Source: Adineta vaga (taxonomy: Eukaryota; Animalia; Rotifera). Taken from it: a DNA stretch of 64,000 nt. The notes under the pieces are model-generated. The model had not been told where the DNA came from. It was given only the letters and a program-made list of their open reading frames with translations, and made no database searches. A program made the position numbers and the translations under genes. Shown here piece by piece: positions 5,075 through 64,000 of this stretch. Positions within the stretch are counted from its first letter, which is position 1. Each line of letters begins with the position of its first letter. Location: assembly GCA_021613535.1 (NCBI GenBank), contig CP075497.1:3720001-3784000 (forward strand), in the 5' to 3' direction.

Positions 5075-6400
5075 ATGTCGAAAGGTGATATGATCACAAT
5101 GAATGATAATATAGATGAAATCTATCAAAAATTACGTCAACGTTCAGTTTTATTAGCTTCTATTATGACACTATTACTTCCTATCCTATTATTTTTCTTT
5201 AATATTGCTTTGTACGATGAAACGTCCTATCATCGATTCATTTTATCATTTGAATGATATGTTCGTGGTCGATCTAGATTGTTTCGCTATTGTTCTTGGT
5301 TGGATACTCATTCAAGTTAGTATCAATGAGAAATAATGATTGATTCTTTAAAGTCGTTTCAGGGTTTTCTGTTTTTATCCATTAAAAAGCAAGATTATCA
5401 AAGTTCTGAGATCGTCTCTTGTCGTTGGAATGGAATGATTACTTTGATCTGTTCTCTAAGTGGAGTTTATCTATTAAATTGGTTGAATATCATTCGTGGA
5501 TCATATATTTATGATAATATTCATAAAATTTTAATTGCTTCAGTGATTACTTCGTTTTTCATTAGTTTTTTGTTATTTATCAGAGGTAATGAAACTCGTT
5601 GTTTGAAACAAATCCATCCTATAATCGCCTTTTTCTATGGCACTGATATCAATTTCACGGTGGCTGGTATTAATTTAAAATTCTTCTTAGAATTTCGAGT
5701 CAGTTTAATCGGATGGATTTGTTTCAATCTTTGCTTTTTTCTTAAAACCATGGAATTATATACATATCGTCGGCCACCTGCTTTTGTTCTTGTATTTATT
5801 CAACAGATCTTTCAAGGTTTTCAATTAATTTGGAATGATGATACTCGTCTTCAAGACAATGAGATGAAAAGAGATACTATCGGATTTTTACGTGTATTTG
5901 GTTCTCTTTGTTGGTTTCCTTTTCTTTGGTAAATGAAAACTTTCTTTTTAAAGTTTATCAAGTACATACACTCTTCTTTAAATCAGGTGTTTGCCTTGTC
6001 AATACTTAACACTTGTCAATTATCCAATCAAACGATTATATATGATTGGATCGGTTGTATTTTTTCTCATTGGTATGTTCATATATCGTAGTATGCGTAA
6101 TCAACAAGAAATCTTCGCACAATCACGTAAAAAGAATATTAAATCAATGGCCTATAATGATGGATTTCTTTCATTGATATCGAGCTATTCGTCTCTATGT
6201 CAACATCCATTTTATCTTGGTTTGTCTAATTGATTGTTTCAACAATGACTTATTCTTTTGTGTTCTATTTAGGAAATCTCCTTATACTTATCTCTTGGTC
6301 ATTGCCTTGTGGTTCAATGCCTATTCCATGGATATTACCTACATACTATCTACTTGTTATTTATCATAGAATTTATCATGAAGATTTGATTTCTCATTAA
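5075..6400 (+). pseudogene. Divergent ERG4/ERG24-family sterol reductase (LBR/TM7SF2/DHCR7-like) with a +1 frameshift and short C-terminus
   Basis: Motifs LGWILIQ, INLKFFLEFRVSLIGW, DTIGFLRVFGSLCWFPFLW and CQHPFYLGNLL..SWSLPCG. Removing one T at 5209-5211 restores a continuous frame (NIACTMKRP...LGWILIQ|GFLFL). The ORF stops at 6398-6400 after HRIYHED, before the usual C..KYG..W..Y..VPY tail. Confidence 0.7.
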
Positions 6401-8353
6401 AAAGATATTTTCGAAGAGCCGCTTACAAAGTATTCCATCAAAAGAAAAGAAAAACATTTTAAATCAAAGTCTATACATGGATAAGCGTTTCTCAAGGGAT
6501 AGATAATGAAAGTCATCTATTGACAATAGTGTATTGTTCTCATGATTATACAACGACATTGTTTTTTGTCTGAAAACATCAGATAACGAAGAAAAACATC
6601 ATGATTATCCTTTACATTGTTTCTCAAGCATAATCGATCAAATAACATACGACTGGAGTACAAAATATTGTCAGAAAAAAGTAACAGATGCTTATTAATA
6701 TCTAAAAATCATCTGTAGATATATGTAATGTATCTATTCTTGTCTTCTTTCACTACGCAAAAAAGATTTCCAATAAAACAGTTGCATTGATAGAAACTAA
6801 TGTTCGATTTCTATTTTCTTTTTGTCGTGTTTATTTATAACTCTTTAAGTGACAGTCTTTAGAAAAACAACAGAAATCTTCGCAAATGAATATATAATAT
6901 ATAATATATATATTGTCAGTTGTTTTTCTACAATCAACTATCAGACATTTTTCACATATGCGAAATAACATCAAGCTGTGACTGTCGACGAAGTTTTAAA
7001 GTATTGAGTAGCATTTCTTATCTCTTCACATCGTTTATCATAAGTACTCTTTTATATGAAACTTACATTGGGAGGGTTTTGTATTGCAGTGGTCTGGACA
7101 GTTTAGAGTTCTTTCTTTGATTTTGTTTTGTTTATGTTTGAGAAAAAGAAAGAGAAGTAAGAGAATATGATATAGACAGTAGAAGAAGAAGAAAAAGAAA
7201 CGAAGCAAATTCAATCAGGAAACATAACAAGAGAGAGAGAGAAGATTTCTCATCAAAGCTGTTTCTACCGATAATGACAACGGCATTACGATCAACAAGA
7301 AGTATATTTTGTTATTTGATGTATTCTTATTAATAATAACAACAAACGCGCGAAAGATAGAAAGAGAAAATGAGAGAATAATAACGATATAAGTTCGTCA
7401 TTAGAGTGTGACATAGTCTAATAGTGTTGAATCAAGTACAACACTCTAATAATTTCGATTAGATACGTATTTGGTGTTATTTTTCTGTCATCATCGACAA
7501 CAATAGTAATCTGTCATCAGTCTTCTTTCGTCTCTTCTTTATATTCTTCAATATCTATATTGCAAAACAAACTTGAATTGCCAGTGAATTCCCTTGTTGT
7601 CGGGGATTAATACCATTGAGTGTCGATTCTTCATTCAACAAATCGAAGTCGTAAGAAGAAGAAAAAGAACCGAACTAAATTATCTATTTCTGCTTTTCTT
7701 TCTATTTTTGTAATTCAATATAAAAACCATCGAGATAATAAAAGAATTTCTCGTAAGAAAAAAAAAAGAACGTCAAATGCATTCATCAATGTCATATATC
7801 GTTGTGTATGCATACGTGTATCGAAATAATCAAAAGTAAAACTACAATTAGTAATTTTTCTCTTTTTTCTTTTTTGTTAATTTCATATTTTATTAACATT
7901 TTAAGAGCAGATTCTTCTTTTTCTTCACCTGCTTTTTTTGTCATTCAGTCATTTGACTTGCTTTCATTAACATATTTATTAGACAAAAGGAAACCATCGA
8001 CACGAGAGTTGTTCCTATCTCCAGAGATTTACTTAACCTTCTTCTTTGTATGCATGTATATAAATAGCTACTGAGCTCATCTTCGCACTACGCACAGAAC
8101 TAAAACGATCATTATTCTTGAATTAATCGACCGGAATAGAAATATAGGTTATCATGTACATACTCTCTTCTTCTACTTCTTCTTCTCCTCTGTGTTGCCA
8201 TTTCTTTCTTTCGAAGGCAACTAACATTTTGTAGCTTGCACATTATTTGACGCTATTCTCTCTTTTTTTTCTGTCGGTCTTACCTAATGAGGCTTTTCCA
8301 TGTTCTCGTTGATCTATCTTCTAGCTTTTATTTGTAGAAACATAAAGAACAGA

Positions 8354-12234: not shown

Positions 12235-13978
12235 TTATAATTTCTTTTTTACATGTTCGAGATTTTCTCTATAGCTCTTGAGCTCGCGATGTCCTGAAGG
12301 AAGTGTTTGTTGTGCAATTTGTGAAGCACGCTCAAAAAATGAACAAGCTTTTGAATAATTATTCAGGTTGTAATACACCAAACCGATGTTGTTGTAAGAG
12401 GAAGCCAAATCAGGATGATTTGGAGGAAGTGATTGTTGTCGAATTGCAAGGGCCTTTTTATAATATGAAAGTACTTTTTGATAGTCACCCATGTTGGCAT
12501 ACACGGAACCGATGTTGTCGTAAATTGAAGCAAAACTCGGATGATTTGAAGGAAGTAATTGTTATGGAATTGTAAGGGCTTTTTCGTACAATCTGATTGA
12601 CTCTTCATACTCTCCTTGACAATCTTTAATCCGACCAATTTGATGATAAATCGTAGCCTTTGCATCCTCATTCGTTGTTTGATCAAGTATCATTTTATAA
12701 ATCTCTTCAGCCTTCTTAGTTTGGCCCAATTGAATTAGTACAAGACCCAATCTTACCCATCCCTCTGCGTCTGGAAAACTCTCTTCTCGTATGTACGAAG
12801 TTAGTGCACCTAAGTCTTGGTCATTATCACCGGTCAATTTCAAAATGACTTCGAAGAGTTTGTTATTTTCGTCCATTTGGTTGATACTATGAATTCTAAA
12901 CACGCTGTTCATTGAAAATAGCACTTCATCTTCACCCGGAATGGCACTCAGACCGCGAATTGATGCAAATGCTGTTTTTGATTGTTTTGGATCAATTATC
13001 ATTACGAAGAAGATACCCATCAGATCTGGATTGGTTGCTGCACTTTGTGCGTAACAAAGTGGAAGATCCTTTTCATTGCTAGTGGAGAGGAAGTTGTTAA
13101 AGGACATCAGCCCACCTTTCGCGTGCTTCAGTTGTTCAAAATCTGCCATGGATAATCCTTGTTCACGATATACTGTGAAGATTTCATCAACATGTTGTTC
13201 TTTGTGTACTTGTTCGATATGTCGATGTAGATCGTTGATAAAGAATCCCATTCATATCATAATATCACCATCTATCATTCGAATTGCACGATTGAGCATG
13301 CGGTAGAAGAAACACTCATAAGTATACCACCAGATAGGTGTTTTCTGATGATAGTTGTTGTTCAATAGTTTTACGTTCCAATTCTGGTTCATTATTAGCA
13401 AAAACGTCAGTACAATAATCCACATAATCGTTAATATGTAAATCATTGAAGTTAATGGTCAATAAAATTTCTCTGAGGATCTGGGTGTACATAAAAGAAG
13501 GATCTAGTTGATCCAACTTTTTGCCTGATGCTACAAAGCTGATGGAGACAGCATTCTGTTCACATCGTTGAGCTGCTTGTTTGAGAGCTACACAGATAGG
13601 TTCGATCTCCGTGAAAACTCCTTGGATTTTTGGCCATTGTCTCACCCATCCTTCATGTTGCTGTTTGTTGTCACACAGGATGAAGATGGAATTTACTTGA
13701 GATAGATCGTGTACGCAAGGTGCTATGTGCTGTACAAGTGAACCTGAAATAATCATGCATGCTTTACGATCTTCTATCGTTTCGATGAATTCAAAGCATT
13801 CATCACCATCTGTATAGATATTTACGTCGTTAACAACACGTCTTAATTGGGCAATTTTATTTTGCGAGTCTTCATTGTTGGCATCAATGTTGGCGTCTAA
13901 CCATATCAAAAGAACATTCTGGATCCTTTGTATATCGATACGTCGACGCTCACAAGTTTCTTTTGAAGTTCCACTCAT
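12235..13978 (-). pseudogene. Intronless receiver-like domain / R-S-E-type ADP-ribosyltransferase / TPR gene, disabled
   Basis: N-terminal NVLLIWLDAN...MIISGSL and LDPSFMYTQIL, PIWWYT..FFYRMLNRAIR; ART motifs VYR, FLSTS and EDEVLF; TPRs HPDLASSYNNIGLVY. One frameshift near 13375 and two in-frame stops: TGA at 13252-13254 (likely from CGA) and TAA at 12562-12564 (likely from CAA). Confidence 0.85.
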
Positions 13979-14642
13979 TGCTTTGCTACTTATAATGTGA
14001 ATATTGTGATCTTTAGTTATTTGAAAGCTATCAGTGATTGACTGATGAAAACCTGGCCATTATATCGGTCTCTATGCTCTTGCTAGATGTGTTTTTTTGT
14101 TTCTGATTATGTTTGTGTTGGAGAATGCCTTTTTTTCTTTTGCTGTATTTATGTTCCTTCTAAAATTACAAGTTTTAAAAGCAAACATTCATTCGCAATC
14201 AGTGTAGAAAGAAAAAATCCAACGAGATATTGTTTTAACAATTGACAGTCATCGAAATAGTCGGCCAAAATGGATGTTTTTATTTATTCTGTCTTCAATC
14301 ACACTCGATCGATACATTTTCCAATAGATTTATTCAACAATTTTCGGTATAGTTTCGATCTCCCTATTTAATTATCTCGTCTGATCGTATTGAGGGTATC
14401 ACAAGCTAATGAATAGTTGAACGATAATGAATAAAGGCAATGCTTAGATATTTAGTTTCACGAAAAAGAGAAATCGTATGGATAATTTTTACTGCTATTG
14501 TGTATATATTTATTTGAGTGCAATATTCCTTTTTTTTTAGTAAAGACATTAGATGAGTAATCAATTGAAAATAGAAGAAGCAAAAATAATAGTACAATAA
14601 CATCCAGTTTCTAAGCAGTATAAACAGTGAAGAATTGAAATA

Positions 14643-52200: not shown

Positions 52201-55200
52201 GATAGCAAAAAAGAAGAAGAAGAAGAAGAAGAAGAAGTCACTTCAGACTTCTATGAATGAGATGAATATCTATTTCGAGGTCTCAGTTAAAAATAGAACC
52301 GAGGACAAGTGCGACGTGATAATATACTTTTGTTTTCTATTGCTTAAACTGTCAATTCTCAACATACTAGTTTGTATATGTATATGTCTATGTCCTTTTT
52401 GATTAAATTCGATGACACATTGAATGAGAAAGATGCAATTAATTTGAAACGATCATCAATAATGTGTATATGTATGTGTAACAGTTTGTCGCCCATCGTA
52501 CGTCGTCATCATCTTCTTGACCTGCATTACTATGGGTTAGTTATTGTGACTGAACGAATGAAAAGACAATACACAATACACAATACAATTCAATATAACA
52601 AGTGCTTCAAGAAGTGTTTATATATGTATATGAACACAATCATTGTAAGAAAAATGAAGAAGAAAAAGTTGTAGTTGTAACAAAAAATAAAACAAACATC
52701 ATATTCTTCGTCACAGTTCTTATCGTCTATCGAAGTTATTTTAATTATAATCTTGAGCTAGACAAAATAGAAGAGGTGTAGTCAAAAGAACAACACAAGT
52801 ACTATAGCAAGTGATTTTTAATGTTATTTATACATGACAGGACTGATATGTAGTTATACTTAGTATTTTTATCATTACTAGACAATCGATAATACACAAG
52901 TACATGGATAGATGAACGACAGTTATGGAAGATAGGATCATCAATCGGTCTATTCATTTGTTCACAAGAGAGCAATAAATTTATTGTATATGTCGCGTGT
53001 TACATTCGTTTACATTATGTACCAGATCGACTGGCGCGATCTAAAATATTCAATTTCTTCATCACCGTTGTCATCACCTCAATGAGTAAAAAATTGACAT
53101 GCCATGCAATGTTACGTGACAATACAGACAAACTTTGTTGTATGAATAATGAAAAAAGAAAAAGAAAAAGAAAAGAATGTCGTCATTGTTCCGTGATCGT
53201 AAGAAAATTAGATCGATTGGAATAAGGGAAACAAGTTTTATAGAAAATCATGATTTTTTGCTTGAATAAATCGATCGCTCGAGGATAACCTAGTGATGAT
53301 CATTGTTATTCATAATTGCCAGTCGAACAAAACACATCTATTCCCTCCTGCTAAGCTTAGCATGATGTCTTTCTAAAGTGTGAGTTAATTCAATTAGAAA
53401 TGCCGTAAGGAAGAAGACTGATCAAGGAATGTTATTTCAGTACATATATTAGAAAAACATATGAAATAGAAAAATAAGTTTGTTTTCTCACTAGGAAACT
53501 AACCTGATTCATCATCATTGCTTGTAGTTGAAGGTGGTGATGTATTGGAATCAGTTGATGAACAATTTAAATGTTCAGTTTGATGTTCAGATATAGGTTT
53601 CATATTTGTATTGGAATGTGTATATCGATCCATAGTGCAAAGTAATGACGAATTTGTATTCATATTAGAATGATTGCTACCATTTATTTTATGTTGCAAA
53701 TATGACTGATGGGCACATGAACATAAAATGATGTCTTTCGTCGTTTGATGGTGACGTTTATGACATGATGATCTGTGAAGTAAATTCGTAGATGGTGGTG
53801 GAGGTATAAAAGATGTGCAACAAGTTGACGATGGTTGATGAACACCTGTGCAAGAAAAAAAAGAGCAAGAATGAGAAAAATTAGCCCCTATCGGCTATAC
53901 ATATACACATACTAAACAACACAAATAATCGTTAGTTTTGACCATTAATGAGCTACACATCTATGCGCACGCACTCAAACACTTTGGTCCTTCTCTTCGT
54001 ATGCCGCTCGGCAGGAAAACAGCAGACTATTCTTTTCATCTTGATAGGTAAACAAGACTCACTCACCAGATTCTCCTCCTATGTTCTGGTGACCTTATCT
54101 TACGCATACTCCTTGGAGAGAAGAAAAAAGAATTACTTTCTGTATCATCAAACGATTTCAATGAAGATACTTTCCTAAACTCTTGTTAATCATTTGTCAC
54201 AGATACATACACGTATGTGTATCTCACACACACACACACACACTCTCTCTCTCGATACATATATACACGATATCATCCGTTTTATGTAACTTTCTCGATT
54301 GATCTTTTCGATTGTGAGTAACAATCTATTGTGCATCATGCCTTGATGAACATCTGTGTCCCAATATACACTCCCAGGACTTACATCATGTATAACAGAG
54401 AGAAAAGAAGAAGAAAAGAAATCTCTTGCGTGTATTCAAATTATTCATGCAAAAGAAAACTGTACGATTGTATTTCATTCAAAATATATCCGACAATGAC
54501 GACTTAATCGTGCATACCCATCATGGTCGTTCTCAATTGCATTGCAATTGCGTAAGACCAGAACAGCAGACGCGTGTACTATCTTTCCGTTTAGAAAAGA
54601 CAATTGGTTAGAGCGAATACACCAGAGAGAAAAAGAATAAAAATGAAGGAAAGAATTTAGAATAAAAATGCAAGGACACAAATGTCGCACGAGGCTGAAA
54701 ATCGAATTGTTATTGATGAAACGATATTGAAGAAATGACAAGATAGAAGGGAATAAAAGTAAAATGATCACTAGAGGCAAGGACATACTGTTCGAAATTC
54801 ACCAAGATTATTTTGTTGAATCTTGTCAGTATGAACATGGATATGTCACTTCGAAAAACTATCGATGAATGATCGAACAAATATAATGAGAATGATTTCA
54901 TTTAATCCTTCTAATATATACGTATATACATCTCAATGTTCAAATGAATGATTTGTCATGATATCCAAGGGTAATACTAAGTATCTCGTTTTGATATTTA
55001 TCATCATAAAAAAAAAGAAAAATACAATGATGACGACGGCTATGTGATGATTTCTATCATGATCAATCATCATGAAATGAACAAAAACATATATTGTTGG
55101 TAAATGAAAATGTCAGATCATGATCATGTCTAATTTTAATGGTTGCTTGTTTTGCCTTTTTTGAAAAAAACAAACTTACCAGATTGAGATGATGGTTGTT

Positions 55201-55330
55201 TTTTTATATTTGACATTGAAGAGGAAGAGTTATTGTATGAATCGGAATAGTAACCACTTTCAACCTGCCATCCATGAGTTGATGATGGAGGACAATGAAT
55301 ATTAACTATTGATGTCCGTGAAGTTGTCAT
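40257..55330 (-). CDS. TENM: Teneurin (type II membrane protein: Pro-rich intracellular domain, TM, 8 EGF repeats, NHL propeller, YD shell, Tox-GHH-like tail)
   Basis: Exons join in phase from 55330. Poly-Pro intracellular domain, TM WKTIAIVLLLTTLCFL, eight EGF repeats with a Cys missing in repeats 2 and 5, GLVDCLDPDCC, RASVIRGQ, NHL motifs (YYLSTDPVDGRLYISD), YD repeats, TDQIGSP, PFGYAG, C-terminal WSSNEIDELISNG...DDPTNF. Confidence 0.93.
52212..52237 (+). repeat. (GAA)n microsatellite in a teneurin intron
   Basis: agaagaagaagaagaagaagaagaag read directly. Confidence 0.85.
54225..54253 (+). repeat. (CA)n(CT)n compound microsatellite in a teneurin intron
   Basis: cacacacacacacacacactctctctctc read directly. 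Confidence 0.85.
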
Positions 55331-58300
55331 AATCTAAAGTTAAATGAAAAGAATATGAATATATATATAAATAAAATAAAAAAGAAAGAATCAAATGAAC
55401 ATTATTTTTCTCTTTCTCCTAATGATCAAATTTCTCTTCTCTTATTTTCTTCTTCTTCTTCTTCTCCTCTTGCTCTCTTATCGTTCATCTGAACTCATTC
55501 TATGTGCATCATCTGTGATTAAAGCAAGACAGATGAATATCAACATATTTAGTTCTTAACTTTGCTCACGTAATGTAATGAAAAGTAAAAATGAAAAGAA
55601 AATAAAGATATTAGACAACGTCTTCTTTCTGACAATCTATACAGACAGGTATCGATATCATTGATAGTATTGATGATTGTTGCATCAGAAACGAGACGTA
55701 TTTCGTGCTGTAAATCATCAACAGACTAGATGACTAGTCTCATCTTATTACTCAATAATGACAGCTCAACTCAATCAATCTATATCATCAATATTGACTT
55801 TCTGGATCGGATCAGATAGCACATATTGCCTACGAGATTATTTGTGTTTCATTTTCTAATTATAGTCATTCAGAGATAATTAAAGATTGAACTCACAGAA
55901 TACATACATATTTCTACATACACTAAAAATCAATTTATACATTTGATATTGATTATATATTAAAAGTAAAAGCTATATACATACAAAATAGGTATCATCC
56001 TTCAACAAGGTCTTGATGCAAATATATTATGCAGAAATGATCCACTTACTCAATGACTATATGTGTGATCTTGTTGACATTTGACTGAGCACATACACAT
56101 GGTCAATCTGATTATGAAAGTAATAAAAAAATCACTGCCAATGTCATATAGTGAATCGAAATTCTTAACACTTCTCTTCTAACTTTTCTTTCTTTCAAAT
56201 AATTGACATATGAACGTTAAATATGTATCATCTCACATTATTTACATAGTGAAGGGCAATGGTCGAGCACTTCTCGTCTTCAATGTTTTTGTTCAATCGA
56301 TAAAAACGACAAATAAATCTAATCTCGCACCATGATGCACATTTTTTTCCACTTTCTTTCTATCTGTCTTTTTTTCGTATGTATGAATGTACACATTTCT
56401 CTAATGATTTCGATTGAATGCAGAATGCATTACAATATCACAAACCATCATTTGATTCGTATCATTCGATGAATATGGAGAATAAATTAGAGCAAGCTGG
56501 GTTCGTATATATATATGTGCCAAACACAATAACTGTCAATCAATATATATATATATATACACAAAAGTGAAACATGTGCTGAACACCACAGGTGATTTCT
56601 ATTCAGATGAGACAAAGAAAAACCAAGTGCATTCTTTCTCTCGCTCTCTCAATTAGTGTGACCTAAGCTAATAGAACAACAAAAACATACAGATATTCTA
56701 TATATGTATGTCAAGTAACGGTAAAAAAGAAACTTCACTTCATTGTGAATAAAGTTTGACTTGACTTCGAGCAATTTTTCTTTTCTATGCTTATCAGCAC
56801 GCTTCATTTCTTCATGAGTTCATAAGATAAGAAAAAGAAAATGATGATTGTTTGAAACCTTAATATCTGACTGGTATAGAAATGAATCAAAGATGCAACT
56901 TGAAATGAATATGAAACCAAACTATAACAGACGACAAAGTAGAGATTCTCAAAAGAGTCACTTCTATATTTAGGTGAGGTCAATCAATGAAAAGAAAAAC
57001 AAAAATTGAATAGATATCTTATCGAATTTTGAGACGCAATACTTACGACGACAAGTGTTCACACACACTTCACCTATGAATATCAGAAGAAAAATAAAAC
57101 AAAACAAAAAATTTCATCTAACTTGTTGCCTTAAGCATGTACTTTCCTCTTCAGAATTCACTCCATTTAATTTGGAGTCAATTATCAAAAAAAAAGCCAA
57201 AAATGAATGAGAGAAAGAAAATCTGAGTAGTCTATATGAAAAAAGAAACTAATCTTTGATCATTGACATATGTTCATTTCTCATATTTACTATTTTTGAT
57301 TTCAATACACCTGCCCAATTTTCACGGACGAGTACAAAAGAAAAGAAGTGTAACATTAGAAAAGAGATATCGTTTCTTTTCTTAAATGAAACGAAGTAAT
57401 GTGGTCCTTGATCTTGTGCACATCTGTGGAGCCTGATGACCCTCAACGCTAACTTTTCTCTAAGCCGTTTACATATAAATTTATGCAATAACTATATAAA
57501 TATATATTTATTTTATTTGACAAAAGACAGCTGGCTCACCTGGTCATCAAATCTTGATCATTTAATTGATTCATTTTTGAACATATGGATGTATGTATGC
57601 GCTTGAGATAACAGGATGATAGAAGAACAATACAGTATCGTAAACAAGTTTATTACTTAGCTTTCTCGTATATCTTTCGATACAACGACGTTTATTTCAC
57701 GCTCGAACTATGATAACAAAGGAAAATACATTGAGAATGAACATCATGGATGATGATGATGATGGATAGAAAAGGGGTGAACCACACATATTCTCAGATA
57801 ATGCACTTATTTCGGCTATTAATTTACTCATATATAGAACGGACAACGGCTGCAACTAAGACTACAAGAACGATAAGCCATGCACGAAATAGACATTTGA
57901 TCGGTCCCTCGAGGACATCAAGACAACGATGCAAGCAAGAAACAAAATGAAAGAAATTTGTACAGGCTGATACAAAACAAATTGATTATCAACTATGAGA
58001 GACTATGAACTGAGTAGAAAAAAAAAGAAAGATTGAATACTGACATAATCATTTTCTTCTTCTTAGTCGTCGTCTTTTTCTATAGCTCAGACTGGTCATC
58101 TCAACAGCTCATTAGAGTAGAACTTTCTCGTAGAAAGAAATCAAAAAAGAAACGAAGCGATATGTTGATAGATCCATCAACTTCGAACAATAGTAAAGAG
58201 AGTTCTTTACGTATAGTTGTAATCAAATGGATTGAATCAAGTCATATGTACAGAGAGACAACAAAATGAACATCATCATTCATTTCTTTTTTTCGTCTAT

Positions 58301-59210
58301 TGGAGACATACTGTGAAATCCACTCGACAATGAGAAGATAGTAAGGCGGCGATGTTAACAGTGTCCTCTTGAAAAATTAGTCCACAGCTGTGTCGAAAGT
58401 ACTCAGACAGACAAGCGTAATTTGGATGAATCAAATGAGTAAAGAAGATAAGTTTAACTTGAATTGAATCGTTTTGTTGATGACAATAATAACAAAAGAA
58501 ATGAGGATTATTTATCTATTTTTAATTGTTTTCTTCTTTTTTTATCAACAGCTGAGACATTCATGTTTATATGTGTCAAGTTGACATTTATTTCACGATT
58601 AAGAAAGTAGTTAATTGCCAAACGTTGATCATTCGATATTTGAGACACAATAAATGTCTATTGAACGTCAAACCTTCTGCAAAGGAAGGAAATGTGGCGT
58701 GTTGCCACAGACAATTCAGACATACGTCTCTTTAAAATACTATTGACGGAAACAAATCATGAGTGGCACGAGGCAGGAATTGTGATCTCTCTGTTTGATT
58801 GATGATCGGTGTGAACTATTCATATACAAATGAGTGACGGAAATGTGTATGCCATCTTCTTAATTATTCTTTGTCAAATAGAACAGATTCAACTCAATTA
58901 AAAAACATTATTTCCTTCGTCAAAATTGTCTAACTAATATTTAGAATAAATATGATTACATCTTTCCTAATTTCAAAGTATCTGGATGATGCAATGAATG
59001 ATGACACATGCATAAAGAATCACTTACAGAATGAATAAACATGACATGATTTCTACTATACGTGTGACAGTTTAAACAAAATAAAAAAACATCGATACTA
59101 TTGACATCTGTTGTAGATGACACTATGGTAATTGCACAATCTGAATATTTTTTTTTCTAATTATTTAAAGCGTACTCTGCATTTCATAGTCAATAGTTAT
59201 TAATTTTCAC

Positions 59211-59810
59211 ATGGCGAATTCATCTACTCGAGTACCGCAAAGAAATACCAATTTATCTATACATGTTGGTAATCTTTCGTATCGTACTAATGAACAAGGT
59301 TTAGAAATATTTTTCAATGAAAAATGTGGTGATGTTAAAAAAGTCCGTATTATTTATGATAATAATACACAACAAAGTCGTGGTTTTGGCTTTGTGTATT
59401 TTAATACAGTTGCCGCTTTTAATACAGCATTGAATCTTTCGGAATGTCGATTAGATGGACGTTTACTTCGAATTTCATCTGTTGAATCGAAAAATTCTTC
59501 AACAACTAATGAAGTTCCTATTACATCTACATCTCAAATAACAAACAAATTCAAAACACAAGTAGTACATTGTAAGAAATCAAATTATGATGTTTATATT
59601 GGTCGTCCATCTGATTGGGGCAATCCATTTGTTATCGGCAAAGACGGTGATCGTAGTGATGTTATACGAAAATATCGTAATTGGATTATGCGTCAACCAG
59701 ATCTTCTAGCTCGAATTAAACCAGAACTTCATGGTCAAAGAATTGCATGTTGGTGTAAACCAGAAGCATGTCACGGTGACGTACTCGCAGAGCTTGCTGA
59801 TGCTGACTAA
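59211..59810 (+). CDS. Intronless RRM + DUF4326-like fusion protein (199 aa)
   Basis: RNP2 IHVGNL and RNP1 RGFGFVYF, a Ser/Thr linker, then VVHCKK..YDVYIGRPSDWGNPF...YR.W...LHGQRIACWCKPEACHGDVL, the DUF4326 pattern (YIGR, WGNPF, CWC.P..CH.DVL). TATA-like TATTTAAA at 59162-59169. Confidence 0.88.
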   Translation: MANSSTRVPQRNTNLSIHVGNLSYRTNEQGLEIFFNEKCGDVKKVRIIYDNNTQQSRGFGFVYFNTVAAFNTALNLSECRLDGRLLRISSVESKNSSTTNEVPITSTSQITNKFKTQVVHCKKSNYDVYIGRPSDWGNPFVIGKDGDRSDVIRKYRNWIMRQPDLLARIKPELHGQRIACWCKPEACHGDVLAELADAD

Positions 59811-62254
59811 ATCATACGAAAATGTTCCCTTCTTTTTATCTTCTATGTTGTCAAAACAGTTTGACGATAGAATTGAGATGGCATCGATAATATTTAATAG
59901 TTGTTTTTTGTTCTGATTGATTTACATTAGACATTTACAAAGTTAAGATAAGAACGAAAAAACGCTTGTACAAACAAAAATATTTTTCTTTTCTTTATAA
60001 TACTTTCTACGATACCTTTATTTTTTCAAGATAAAAAAAATATATGTAACTAACAATCTATTGAAAAATGATTCTTATATCTTTTGAAAAAGAAAATGAC
60101 GAATATTCTGATAAGAAACTGACATGTTGATCCCCTATGATTAATTTTATATAAAAAAAAGAGACTAAACTTCGGTGGTTTGTCAGGCCTTGCAGAGATT
60201 AATCCCAATGACAATTGTAAATGATAATATATGTATATTTTTTATTTCGTACATTTAAAATTGATAAGTTCTTTCTCAATGAGTAATATCGATTCTGCTT
60301 ATACAAAAATGTTTATTCTCTCTCTTTTCTTTAGTACTATTTATCTATAAAGTGATCGATTGCTGTAAACTTTATGGTTACTTCTGTGTTGCTCTATATA
60401 TATATATATACACATACGCATACACATATGAAGATATTATAAGTTCGTCTGACCGAGAGGTGAAGCAAGAAAAACACAGAGAGTAAAGATGTTGATATAA
60501 TAGGATAATGTCTGGAAGAAGAGAAAATTATGTGGAACAGCAATTGCATCGGCAATGGCGGTCACTGTTATAATAACAAAGACCAAATACGTAATAACAA
60601 AGAAATAGTTCAACATGCGAATTACTATTGATTACATAAAAACTGACGATGAATGTTCATGAAGGAAAAAATGTAAGATTTCTCTTTTAGTCTGCATGTG
60701 TATGTGTGTTTGTCTTTTTTCTCGAAATATTCAAGGTCTTACGTTACGTATATCCGTTTGATAATGTCGAATGAAAAGAAGAAAAGAGAGAAAGAGAGAG
60801 AGAGAGAATATGTACTAATCGGATTCAATGATGAAATGAAGACAGTGAATGCAAATATCAATTGTCATCCCTTCTCAGCAGGATTCTAAACTCGTTTTAT
60901 TTGTGATGGCAGTGATAAGAGAAAAGCGAAAGAGGAAGAGTAAGTCGCTTTTACTCCTGCTGGCCGTTCTCCCATTTAAGCGAATCATTTATCAAAAGGT
61001 TGCAGCACATTTAATAGATGAAACATTCAGTTAGAAGATTCATTGTGAATACTTGATGATGTGGTATCTCAATGATCAACAATCTTCCTTAATGGTTAGT
61101 AAACAGTTTTGCTTTTCATTGTCGAATGTATCAATAGAAGAAGTTAAAGACTTTCAAAGAACTATTTTCTCTTTTCTTTCATCAATTATAAAGGTAGTTT
61201 GTCATAGGTTTCTTTTTCTTTTTCATTCTTCTTCTTCTTCTACTTCTTCTTCTTTCTATTCACGATGTTTTATTTATTCGTTCGTTTCTTTTTGATTTCA
61301 TAGTAATGTTCTTCAAACAAACTAATATAGTATACAGTATGAAATACAGATGATGATGAAGAAAGAAAAAATAACATCATAAATAGCCGTTTGACACAAC
61401 CATTCACTTCTATATCGTATCTTTCAACATCGGAATTTGTTACAAAATAACGATGAGTAACATTAAAAAAAGAGAAGAAATTAATGTGTGTATGTGTGCA
61501 AGTGAAATAACTATGGGCACTTTCAATCAATTCAGACATCAGATGAAAAAAAAAGAAAGAAAAAATTGTATACAGATGCGAGCAAGGATGTTGACACATC
61601 TTGTCTTCGATCGATCTCTCATAAATTAGTTTATAAGAGTTAGAAGCAAAGAAAAGACTTCTTCGTAACAATGACAGTTATATATTTGCGCATTTCTTTT
61701 CATTTTATTCGAAGAACTGTCTGATGCACGATTATTAGTCGTACGAAAACAATGTATTGTATATCTGAAATAAAATTTGTATACATTTCTATATGTATCT
61801 TTATATACATTATATATTTAAGATGGGACGACAAAGAATGGCAAAATGATTCATAGACAGCATGGATGTAGAAGAATAAAAAAAACTGCACGTTCTAACT
61901 CGACGTGTTCGACTACGTAACATCACTATTACACCTAGTATCTACTTTTTTGTGTTTGTCTCCTTGTACTCGAGGTTGTTATTGTCGAATCAATCGATTG
62001 ACGTTTAAGGTAAAAACTACTTGCGAGATTTTTTATTCTATTAACGTTTCATTTGAATAAAGCGTGTCAAATTTTATTTTCGATCGTCGTATGCCACTGT
62101 TGTTTTTCAGGTGTCTTTAAAATAAGTGCATGTTTTTCGTAAACAAGGCTTACAAATTTCCTTCCCTCAGTTTGCTATTTCTTTTTTCGTCCTTGCTTGT
62201 TTCACCTTTACATACATCTGTATATGTGAAATCACTAAATCACATTTCGATACC

Positions 62255-64000
62255 ATGGAACGACAAAACAGCAGCGACAGCAGCATCAGTAGCCATAGTA
62301 GCAACGACGATGATTCTAATGTAGATTTATTGTTCTTTATCATTACAAAAACGTTTTCTCATGATTAATTAATATTTTCTCTTGTCGTTCTCAGGTTAGT
62401 TTGGACGGTTCATCAACAACACCCGTATCCACAACGATGGATAAAGGATATTATCGACAAGTTCCAAATCGATTTTTTACCAATGAATCAAATACCGATA
62501 CATGTAAATTGGAACGATTAACTAATTTATTTCCTGATATGAAAGCAACTATTGAATTAGGTATGTTTATGCAATGATTACATTAGGAAAAGGAAATAAA
62601 AGATTGTGCTTTTTTCTCTTTTAAACTTAGAATTATTTAAAAGCAATAGTTTATCACGTACAGTGGATCGTCTTTCTCGTATTTATACTGTATTAACAGC
62701 ACTCGATACACGTGATGATACTTTACATCTATTTCTTGGTCCATATCATTTATCGTTGGGTCCAGCTTTGTTTGCAGCACTTCATTTTAAAAATGCATCA
62801 GCAGCATTACTTACTGCTTCACGTCCAATAACGACAGGCGGCGCTGGTGGTGGAACTGAAAGTCAACGACGTAAACGTCGACGTGAAAATGTTCTTCGTC
62901 GATTTCGTCGTGCTGTACGAAAACTTACTCTCGTTAAATCTATTGTAGATCAACTTCGACCTGCTTCAGTACTAACACCCTATAATCAATATGAATTACA
63001 ACAAAAAGGAATCTATGATCTTGTATTAGCTGGACGTGTACAAAATGCTGATTCAATGTTCACAAGCGATGATTTTATTGAACAGTTAACGAAATTCGAT
63101 ACGGCATCTAATGCAGGAGAACGAAGTTCTTTATTAGCTTCTAATTATGTTAAAATAAATAATTTGCTCAATTTACTTTCTTCACCTCAACAACCATCAT
63201 CACAACAACAACAACAATATCCACAAACATACGAAAGTAATTCAACCACAGTAACAACAACATCAAAATCAACTGGAAATATAAGTCGTATTAAATCTAC
63301 CGAATCTCTTGTTAATGGAACCAATAACAACAATAATACTAATACTATTAATCCAGGAAACATACTAGATTCCGAATCATCCTGTTGTTCACTGCATCGT
63401 CCAACATCACCATTTATTATGTTTCCTGTAAATCAAACCGCTAGTCCTCAACCTAGTCAATCACTATCAACTAAACCTCGTTCACGAGCTAATAGCAGTT
63501 CAAATTTACTTAAAACACCAAATGTTCTCTCAAGACAAAGCACGGTATGTAACATATGTAAACAAATAGGCAGATAAACACGTTAGTGTAAAGAATATAA
63601 AACTTCATCGAGTAAATATATGTTTAATACTTTGAGGCTCATTTACTAGTGATTAAATTATATTTGTGTCTAGCGTACAAACATAATATCTATGACATTC
63701 ATAGATTTTTCTTTCCTATACATGTACATTTGAACAGAGATAAATGATCTTCTTTTGTCAATTAGATCTTTCTTTTCATATATATCTGTTCCGTTTTCTA
63801 TACAATTACGTCATCAGAAAGAAGAAAAAAAGAAAAGCTTGATCAAATAAGTAATAGTTTTCTTTTCCGTTTTTCTTTTACAATAGGCCAATAGTTTGCC
63901 TGACTCTTCAACTGGTGACGTTTCCACTTCAGATCTTCGTTCATCACCATCATTACTAATATCAGCGCAATCAAATCCTGTAAATATCAATTTAGATACG
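62255..64000 (+). CDS. Uncharacterised spliced protein, 3'-incomplete (runs off the window)
   Basis: Exons 62255-62320, 62395-62560, 62631-63544 and 63887-end join in frame through GT-AG introns. Contains a basic helix (RRFRRAVRKL) and low-complexity S/N/Q regions. No family recognised. Confidence 0.7.

Follow-up and report, generated by a model that had tools for sequence, protein, structure and literature searches.

DUF4326 is reportedly placed by Burroughs and Aravind (2023) in a clade with RapZ-C and DUF488. In the available excerpts of PMC9503650, it is predicted to be of the rhodanese-phosphatase type and to act on terminal phosphates attached to ribose, and those of PMC7824862 predict an enzyme bridging NAD+ systems and DNA modification. 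No measured activity for any DUF4326 was found in the literature searched. For RapZ, excerpts of PMC5737377 describe a pocket (H190, T248, G249, H252 and R253, with C247 nearby) in which sulfate or malonate is held; RNA backbone phosphates are also held there, a GlcN6P site is proposed and a chemically transformed GlcN6P product was seen in the pocket (PMC5737377, PMC9841335, in the parts available). RNA stem-loops and GlcN6P are both ligands of the RapZ-CTD, and their access to one pocket is predicted to be mutually exclusive (PMC9841335, in part). No published description of an RRM-DUF4326 fusion was found in the literature searched, a scope outside which the 2023 superfamily paper lies.

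Such a fusion is encoded in the 64,000-nucleotide stretch of Adineta vaga DNA analysed here as a whole (the window), and its features are collected in Table 1. The intact, intronless 199-aa ORF claimed in a preliminary description is present as a single frame from ATG to TAA (59211–59810, plus strand), and the encoded protein is already known to databases as an RRM-domain or hypothetical protein. Pfam assigns RRM_1 to aa 18–86 (E 1.3e-14, 54.3 bits against a cut-off of 20.7) and DUF4326 (PF14216) to aa 117–194 (E 2.8e-28, 98.8 bits against a cut-off of 25, model positions 2–82 of 82), which bears out, over nearly the full model, the identity proposed for the C-terminal domain. The motifs named for that domain were located (YIGR at 129–132, WGNPF at 136–140 and CWCKPEACH at 180–188), the linker is rich in Ser and Thr as described (42% Ser+Thr across 67 fused homologues) and the TATA-like box said to lie about 45 bp upstream is found 42–49 bp 5' of the ATG. 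The codons, described as host-like, have a GC3 of 0.146, within the 0.12–0.20 of five other host exons of the window. Two statements need amendment: the surroundings are not intron-rich, as an ORF scan found no other recognisable coding exon in ~51.5–61.9 kb, and the RRM called canonical has the Pfam score and RNP1 of one but carries His18 at the aromatic position of RNP2.

Table 1. Features of the RRM-DUF4326 locus, in window coordinates
Feature	Position	Strand	Evidence or comment
Upstream motif ATTGACA	59100-59106	+	Conserved in 4/4 aligned loci
Upstream motif ATTGCACAAT	59131-59140	+	Conserved in some loci
TATA-like element TATTTAAA	59162..59169	+	TTATTT(A/T)A aligned in 4/4 bdelloid loci
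Transcript-like contig span	59178..60100	+ (strand from ORF)	X1, X11, X5
RRM-DUF4326 coding sequence	59211..59810	+	Intronless, 199 aa; gene already called in NCBI/nr
RRM (aa 17-90)	59259..59480	+	Pfam; block pLDDT 81-98 over aa 11-90; dN/dS 0.11-0.29
RNP2, I17-L22	59259-59276	+	Within RRM
RNP1, R57-F64	59379-59402	+	Within RRM
Ser/Thr-rich linker	59481..59555	+	Predicted disordered: pLDDT <50 at aa 94-112; dN/dS 0.40-0.87
DUF4326 domain (aa 116-199)	59556..59807	+	Pfam, PHROG 464, model pLDDT 97.9, fold searches, dN/dS 0.05-0.10; predicted RapZ-C-like fold
YIGR-x3-WGNPF-x7-R segment (Y129, R132, N138, P139, R148)	59595..59654	+	Candidate phosphate-binding half of pocket; role read by eye from RapZ R184/N188/P189
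C180-W-C182-K-P-E-A-C187-H188-G-D190 loop	59748..59780	+	Candidate catalytic and/or zinc site; after last strand, opens last helix (model)
3'-UTR block	59920..59980	+	Conserved, aligned in 4/4 loci
Possible poly(A) site	near 60063-60068	+	X5 A8 loose end after genomic A5; poly(A) or internal priming

The surrounding genes show the window to be animal DNA: minus-strand teneurin exons (matched by Pfam at 41.1–47.9 kb), Dopey, a pyridine nucleotide-disulphide oxidoreductase, GPCRs and a Kazal-domain gene; the RRM-DUF4326 gene lies either upstream of teneurin or inside its first intron. Elsewhere in the window (12238–14059, minus strand), an ADP-ribosyltransferase-like domain is followed by TPR repeats, with a GC of 0.37–0.39 and a GC3 of 0.345, above the surrounding genes. 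The intact intronless fusion was present in 4 of the at least 80 metagenome loci kept. L086 and L088/L089, the latter two encoding the same protein, align to the window on both flanks of the gene, and L089 does so from 53.2 to 64.0 kb in blocks of 66–80% identity. Within this alignment, ~5.6 kb of apparently non-coding DNA (53200–58800) shows 60–82% identity per 250 bp, compared with 41–59% in the immediate flanks of the gene; from its sequence conservation, this block likely represents conserved regulatory elements near teneurin. Downstream, a spliced and transcribed gene on the plus strand (61921–64000) is kept in L088/L089 with 58% protein identity, and the exon scanned gave no Pfam match.

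Sequencing runs were found by a search with the RRM-DUF4326 gene, and 4 of the 17 listed were aligned to 54–64 kb. Three of them, from three studies (X1, X5 and X11), are spliced across GT..AG introns of the neighbouring gene (three joints in X1, one in X5 and three in X11) and leave most intergenic bins empty, and they cover the ORF region without a listed joint (X1 59178–60100, X11 59203–60011, X5 59411–60068). The fourth, X9, has coverage in 30 of 30 bins and no splice joints, and thus behaves as DNA. No run is recorded as RNA, the RNA nature being deduced from the GT..AG joints, and the contigs give neither strand nor level; transcription of the gene is therefore indicated indirectly. The stress-expression supplements searched had no PF14216/DUF4326 entry among their listed rows, which says nothing on expression. 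Linkage to the flanks and, indirectly, expression, both proposed as checks in the preliminary description, came out positive, with transcript-like contigs from three studies over the gene and flanks matching independent bdelloid contigs. A misassembly or contamination was rejected given the synteny with independent contigs, the coverage by the DNA-like run and the host-like GC3. An exon of a larger spliced gene was likewise rejected, given that homologues share start and stop positions and that the listed transcript-like contigs have no joint there.

Upstream of the ORF, ATTGCNCAAT is found at 59131–59140 of the window and in L086 (770–779), L087 (473–482) and L104 (5938–5947), and is absent from L088/L089. 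It lies ~30–80 bp 5' of the ATG in three clade-1 loci as well as in a non-syntenic clade-2-like copy (L104). The motif, which we take to resemble a C/EBP site, occurs twice in the window against 1.1 expected and is notable for its position only. The L104 copy itself (5979–6475) is a frameshifted clade-2-like fusion on a non-syntenic contig; an ORF ~160 bp upstream of it matches PARP weakly (E 1e-3), short of the cut-off. Judging from its conservation, the 3'-UTR block is possibly a protein-binding or autoregulatory site. A conserved structure in the 3' UTR was considered and is unsupported, with folding z-scores of -0.4 to -1.8 and structures that differ.

The RRM has the Pfam score, the beta-alpha-beta-beta-alpha-beta fold and the RNP1 aromatics of its family; among 67 fused homologues, R57 is kept in 64, F59 in 63 and F61 in all 67. 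The second position of RNP2 is Tyr or Phe in 53 of the 67 and His, as in the window's copy, in 8, which leaves Pfam membership unaffected. The closest non-fused matches are 35–41% identical (3 non-fused among 25 matches). The bacterial RRM 2ki2 scores 60.2 bits, amid single eukaryotic RRMs (57–68 bits), so bacterial and eukaryotic RRMs score alike. The best NCBIfam model is that of a stand-alone RNA-binding regulator, presumably a bacterial model, and is matched at half its cut-off; PDB matches include hnRNP A1 and a bacterial ssDNA-binding RRM. The linker varies from 13 to 44 aa across the 67 fused homologues. An AlphaFold model of the full protein, made with 45 fused homologues, has two ordered domains and a disordered linker (aa 94–112), and its pTM of 0.48 indicates domains without a fixed mutual orientation.

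All family-conserved residues (YIGR, GNP, R and CxC-x4-CHGD) are kept in the window's DUF4326. C180, C182, C187 and H188 are invariant in 138 aligned domains and reach 99% in 387 non-fused domains, in which R132, N138 and R148 are each at 98% and D190 at 92%; the CxC..CH motif is carried by 453 of 459 domains. In a predicted model of DUF4326 alone, built on 138 sequences (pLDDT 97.9), C180 and C182 alternate at the end of a strand (aa 177–180), and a helix starts from H188. Searching 48,161 chains with this model returned the RapZ-CTD as the top two matches (Z 5.3 and 5.2, 78 of 86 residues, rmsd 2.9–3.0), the higher score falling in the range where, according to the tool, a common arrangement alone may be reflected. 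The next match had a Z of 3.4, NADAR scored 3.2–3.4, and 24 of the 47 rows were PTP or dual-specificity phosphatases (Z 2.0–2.9). Most of the top viral DUF4326 models, giant-virus ones among them, match with a TM of 0.7–0.88. Foldseek against the PDB gave no match, a PDB sequence search gave nothing better than E 0.33, and PADLOC gave no match; HHalign against DUF488 and RapZ-C was not significant (P 0.05–0.19) and is uninformative, given that the RapZ-DUF488 control pair failed too.

The RapZ-C-like fold predicted for DUF4326 leans towards the rhodanese-phosphatase superfamily, in agreement with the placement given in excerpts of PMC9503650. Hence, the description of the domain as uncharacterised holds for activity, none having been found measured in the literature, but not for its placement, which had been published and with which our fold search agrees. 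The CX5R motif with its phosphate-binding Arg is not present in DUF4326, where the phosphatase-loop Arg position is Gly189 (69 of 69 bdelloid-clade domains, 95% of others), and the domain was accordingly not filed with the PTP or dual-specificity phosphatases. In the model, the Cys/His motif occupies the position of a phosphate-binding loop and may be catalytic, either in place of binding zinc or in addition to it. C180, C182, C187 and H188 may form a tetrahedral metal site, a candidate suggested by their conservation.

Both Pfam domains were detected in 66 proteins (query included) among the best 120 of 768 matches (109–349 aa). All 16 organism-named double-domain matches are bdelloid, from nine named species: Adineta ricciae, A. 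steineri, A. vaga, Rotaria sordida, R. socialis, R. magnacalcarata, R. sp. Silwood1, R. sp. Silwood2 and Didymodactylos carnosus. No named non-bdelloid animal was present among the best 120 of 768 (whole protein, ≤349 aa) or the best 120 of 1,913. The architecture search that had been suggested thus finds the fusion confined to bdelloids among the listed matches. A whole-protein tree of 67 rows (the 66 double-domain proteins and one with a degenerate RRM), rooted on Didymodactylos, has two clades of 48 and 18 rows (SH-aLRT 86 and 95), the window's protein grouping with A. ricciae and A. steineri. Each clade contains both Adineta and Rotaria, so the fusion is older than the split between these two genera and than an ancient duplication. 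A family-conserved site distinguishes the paralogues: clade 1 and Didymodactylos have R148/V151 (49 of 49 rows), whereas clade 2 has K148 (17 of 18) and R151 (18 of 18). A recent or species-specific fusion was rejected, since the fusion is old and found bdelloid-wide as two paralogues.

Pairwise dN/dS (Nei-Gojobori, four sequences, six pairs) was 0.05–0.10 in DUF4326, 0.11–0.29 in the RRM and 0.40–0.87 in the linker; the dN/dS check named in the preliminary description thus points to purifying selection. A second allele or strain differs at eight ORF sites, three silent and five replacing, none of them at the conserved Cys, His or Arg; this small sample shows little depletion of replacements.

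The DUF4326 domain taken alone is up to 76% identical to stand-alone metagenome proteins of 83–95 aa. Its matches comprise 2,106 phage records, 42 bacterial and archaeal genome loci, 38 viral loci and 13,847 clusters at 50% identity, and in the three Atlas clusters shown, 56–80% of the members with a record are viral. It also matches PHROG 464, and in one phage DUF4326 is annotated as T4 NrdA.1-like. The phage, bacterial and large-virus relatives expected for the domain are thus found among the listed matches, together with archaeal and protist proteins. FastTree trees of 456 and 536 domains recovered the fused domains as one clade (0.87 and 0.98, respectively). In an 87-row IQ-TREE, 14 of the 15 bdelloid rows group (90/92), Didymodactylos being placed outside without resolution, and constraining all 15 together gives a better likelihood. 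Eleven rows were labelled protist-like, one being named Dracoamoeba, one coming from MMETSP and the others judged by composition and clustering; they mostly form a separate group, and a joint clade with the bdelloids was not rejected (p-AU 0.33).

On these sequence comparisons, a transfer of DUF4326 into bdelloids is the simplest reading. A single donor assignment was rejected because the sister group shifts between trees, neither a phage or bacterial nor a microbial-eukaryote donor being established. The foreign origin put forward for the domain is thus supported by nearest relatives that are non-animal, but the donor assignment changes with the tree.

Among 73 longer non-bdelloid DUF4326 proteins chosen from the matches, no RRM fusion was detected. 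SLOG-type fusions were the commonest (nine, two of them below the Pfam cut-off), followed by five tandem DUF4326, three TubC_N, two CCCH zinc fingers, one NADAR (P0112) and one UDG (P0100). The two CCCH-DUF4326 proteins (P0275 and P0327) fall among protist-like sequences, outside the bdelloid clade. A CCCH finger joined to DUF4326 in P0275, P0327 and P0385, which are protist-like or giant-virus sequences, makes a second RNA-reader fusion. In a survey of 113 ORFs from 48 of the 80 genome and viral loci, fusions involved SLOG (8), NADAR (L010), PolA (L064 and L066), PolX (L018) and an exonuclease (L047). The neighbours included DUF488 (3), DUF5131 (3, plus one fusion), ssDNA-binding proteins (3), RecT, ERF, an alkylation-repair enzyme and NADAR-DarT1. 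DUF488 adjoins or lies near DUF4326 in L016, L017, L020–L025, L027, L029–L031, L033, L035, L036 and L069; in the three loci checked with Pfam, DUF488 is followed by mSLOG-DUF4326, placing two members of one proposed clade side by side. In the Acidobacteriota loci L003, L004, L005 and L007, DUF4326 comes after, or is fused to, DUF5131. Since these fusions and neighbours mostly concern NAD/ADP-ribose and DNA, the ancestral context of DUF4326 is NAD/ADP-ribose and DNA, while RNA is suggested by the eukaryote-type fusions (RRM, CCCH) and by RapZ.

Our working proposal, tentative and held at somewhat less than an even chance, is that RRM-DUF4326 is an RNA-tethered enzyme for terminal phosphates at RNA ends. 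The RRM would bind single-stranded RNA through its intact RNP1, and the flexible linker would allow DUF4326 to reach a nearby RNA end. There, R132, R148 and H188 would hold a phosphate (2'/3', cyclic or linked to ADP-ribose), C180 or C182 would act as nucleophile while the other cysteines resolve it or bind metal, and DUF4326 would remove or transfer the terminal phosphate on the ribose. Its role might be to heal or clear RNA ends after drying, oxidative damage or attack by nucleases or ADP-ribosylation. The proposal draws on the matches to the RapZ-CTD and phosphatase folds and on the phosphates held in the RapZ pocket, on an enzyme-like pattern of conservation in the 387 non-fused domains (92–99% for three Cys, one His, two Arg, one Asn and one Asp), and on the kept RNP1 aromatics, the constraint on both domains and the CCCH finger fused in 2 of 73 proteins. 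Against it stand Gly189 in place of the CX5R/HR loop Arg, the modest Z of 5.3, the blank Foldseek search and the non-significant profiles. The nearest solved fold, the RapZ-CTD, is moreover known as a binder and not as a proven enzyme. The alternative of a non-catalytic RapZ-like adaptor or sensor would have both domains bind RNA, with a sugar-phosphate or ADP-ribose metabolite competing with a backbone phosphate for the pocket; the Cys/His motif would bind a structural zinc, and the stability or translation of target RNAs would be gated. In its favour, the RapZ-CTD, as the nearest solved fold, has RNA stem-loops and GlcN6P as ligands (PMC9841335, in the excerpts available), the phosphatase Arg is missing, and C180 and C182, alternating on the strand, provide with C187 and H188 four potential metal ligands. 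We nevertheless regard an adaptor as rather unlikely, considering that DUF4326 is mostly a stand-alone 83–95-aa protein or an add-on to phage enzymes, that D190, N138 and two Arg are kept beyond the metal ligands, and that the RapZ C-terminal strand and basic tail are lacking.

The RNA-end enzyme must also be weighed against the phage and bacterial fusions and neighbours, which are mostly DNA- or NAD-related (PolA, PolX, UDG, SSB, RecT, DUF5131, SLOG and NADAR, for example). In addition, RRMs can bind single-stranded DNA or protein, and the stress-induction data are not tied to this gene. If the RRM bound single-stranded DNA, DUF4326 might clean blocked 3' ends or act at abasic sites in bdelloid DNA repair, in keeping with the fusions to UDG, PolA, PolX and an exonuclease and with the neighbouring SSB, RecT, ERF, alkylation-repair enzyme and DUF5131. 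Bdelloids, as general background, have reportedly recruited foreign DNA-repair genes. The bridge from NAD+ systems to DNA modification predicted in excerpts of PMC7824862 points the same way. Even so, a DNA-end enzyme seems unlikely to us, as both eukaryote-type partners seen, the RRM and the CCCH finger, are classically RNA readers, and A. vaga already has four PNKP and two TDP1 copies (PMC6264785, in part). The literal published prediction (PMC9503650, in part) would instead have the domain dephosphorylate free ADP-ribose-1''-phosphate or a related NAD+ derivative, or cycle thiols through its three cysteines, while the RRM parks it on RNA-rich granules or at splicing or repair sites. SLOG-type fusions, the commonest in both surveys (9 of 73 proteins; 8 among 48 loci), the NADAR fusions (P0112, L010) and the ADP-ribosyltransferase-TPR gene within the window are in line with such a small-molecule enzyme. 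A diffusible substrate, however, gives little reason for purifying selection on the RRM in both paralogues across Adineta, Rotaria and Didymodactylos, and SLOG, Macro and NADAR are all absent from the bdelloid gene, which makes this quite improbable.

For the history of the gene, we advance as possible, though doubtful, that a counter-defence domain of phages was recruited in the bdelloid stem lineage as an RNA-targeted enzyme that heals ends or erases ADP-ribose phosphates. Two paralogues with different pockets (R148/V151 and K148/R151) would then have arisen, and protists would have arrived independently at a CCCH finger. If the RNA-end enzyme is real, DUF4326 would define a new class of enzymes for RNA repair, and the gene would be a dedicated RNA-repair factor, a rare example in a desiccation-tolerant animal. 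The DUF4326 family is very large, and an RRM-fused animal protein of 199 aa, easy to express and assay, points at its class of substrate. The gene is also a further bdelloid case, after N4CMT, in which a foreign domain of enzyme type was combined with a reader. These prospects are tempered by the fact that foreign genes are common in bdelloids and that the function is a prediction.

Set beside described systems, the RapZ-CTD of E. coli (PDB 5O5S/5O5Q) is the best structural match to DUF4326, at a modest Z of 5.3, and by eye RapZ R184 corresponds to R132, N188-P189 to N138-P139, C247 to C180/C182 and H252 to H188. RapZ R253, in contrast, corresponds to Gly189, identity is 13% and the profile similarity is not significant. 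The DUF4326 protein has two extra cysteines and lacks a kinase-like partner domain, and the C-terminal strand and basic tail of RapZ have no counterpart in it, the alignment covering RapZ 162–264 only. With the Cys-based PTP, dual-specificity and RNA phosphatases of that fold, which fill 24 of the 47 fold-search rows, it shares a Cys ending the strand before a helix; it differs in lacking CX5R and in being much smaller, and the Z is only 2.0–2.9.

Within its own family, the domain is typical in its Pfam score of four times the cut-off, its family-invariant residues and its identity of up to 76% to stand-alone homologues. In contrast, the available parts of PMC9503650 and PMC7824862 give as its partners, in phages and giant viruses, SLOG, Macro and NADAR together with domains of DNA replication or restriction-modification, and name neither an RRM fusion nor an animal. 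The bdelloid N4CMT (PMC8885841, in the parts available) differs in its demonstrated activity, its five introns and its clearly eukaryotic reader, whereas RRM-DUF4326 is intronless, with a predicted activity and an RRM of unproven host origin. As in N4CMT, where a bacterial amino-methyltransferase is joined to a eukaryotic chromodomain, a foreign enzyme-type domain is here combined with a eukaryote-type reader across bdelloid lineages.
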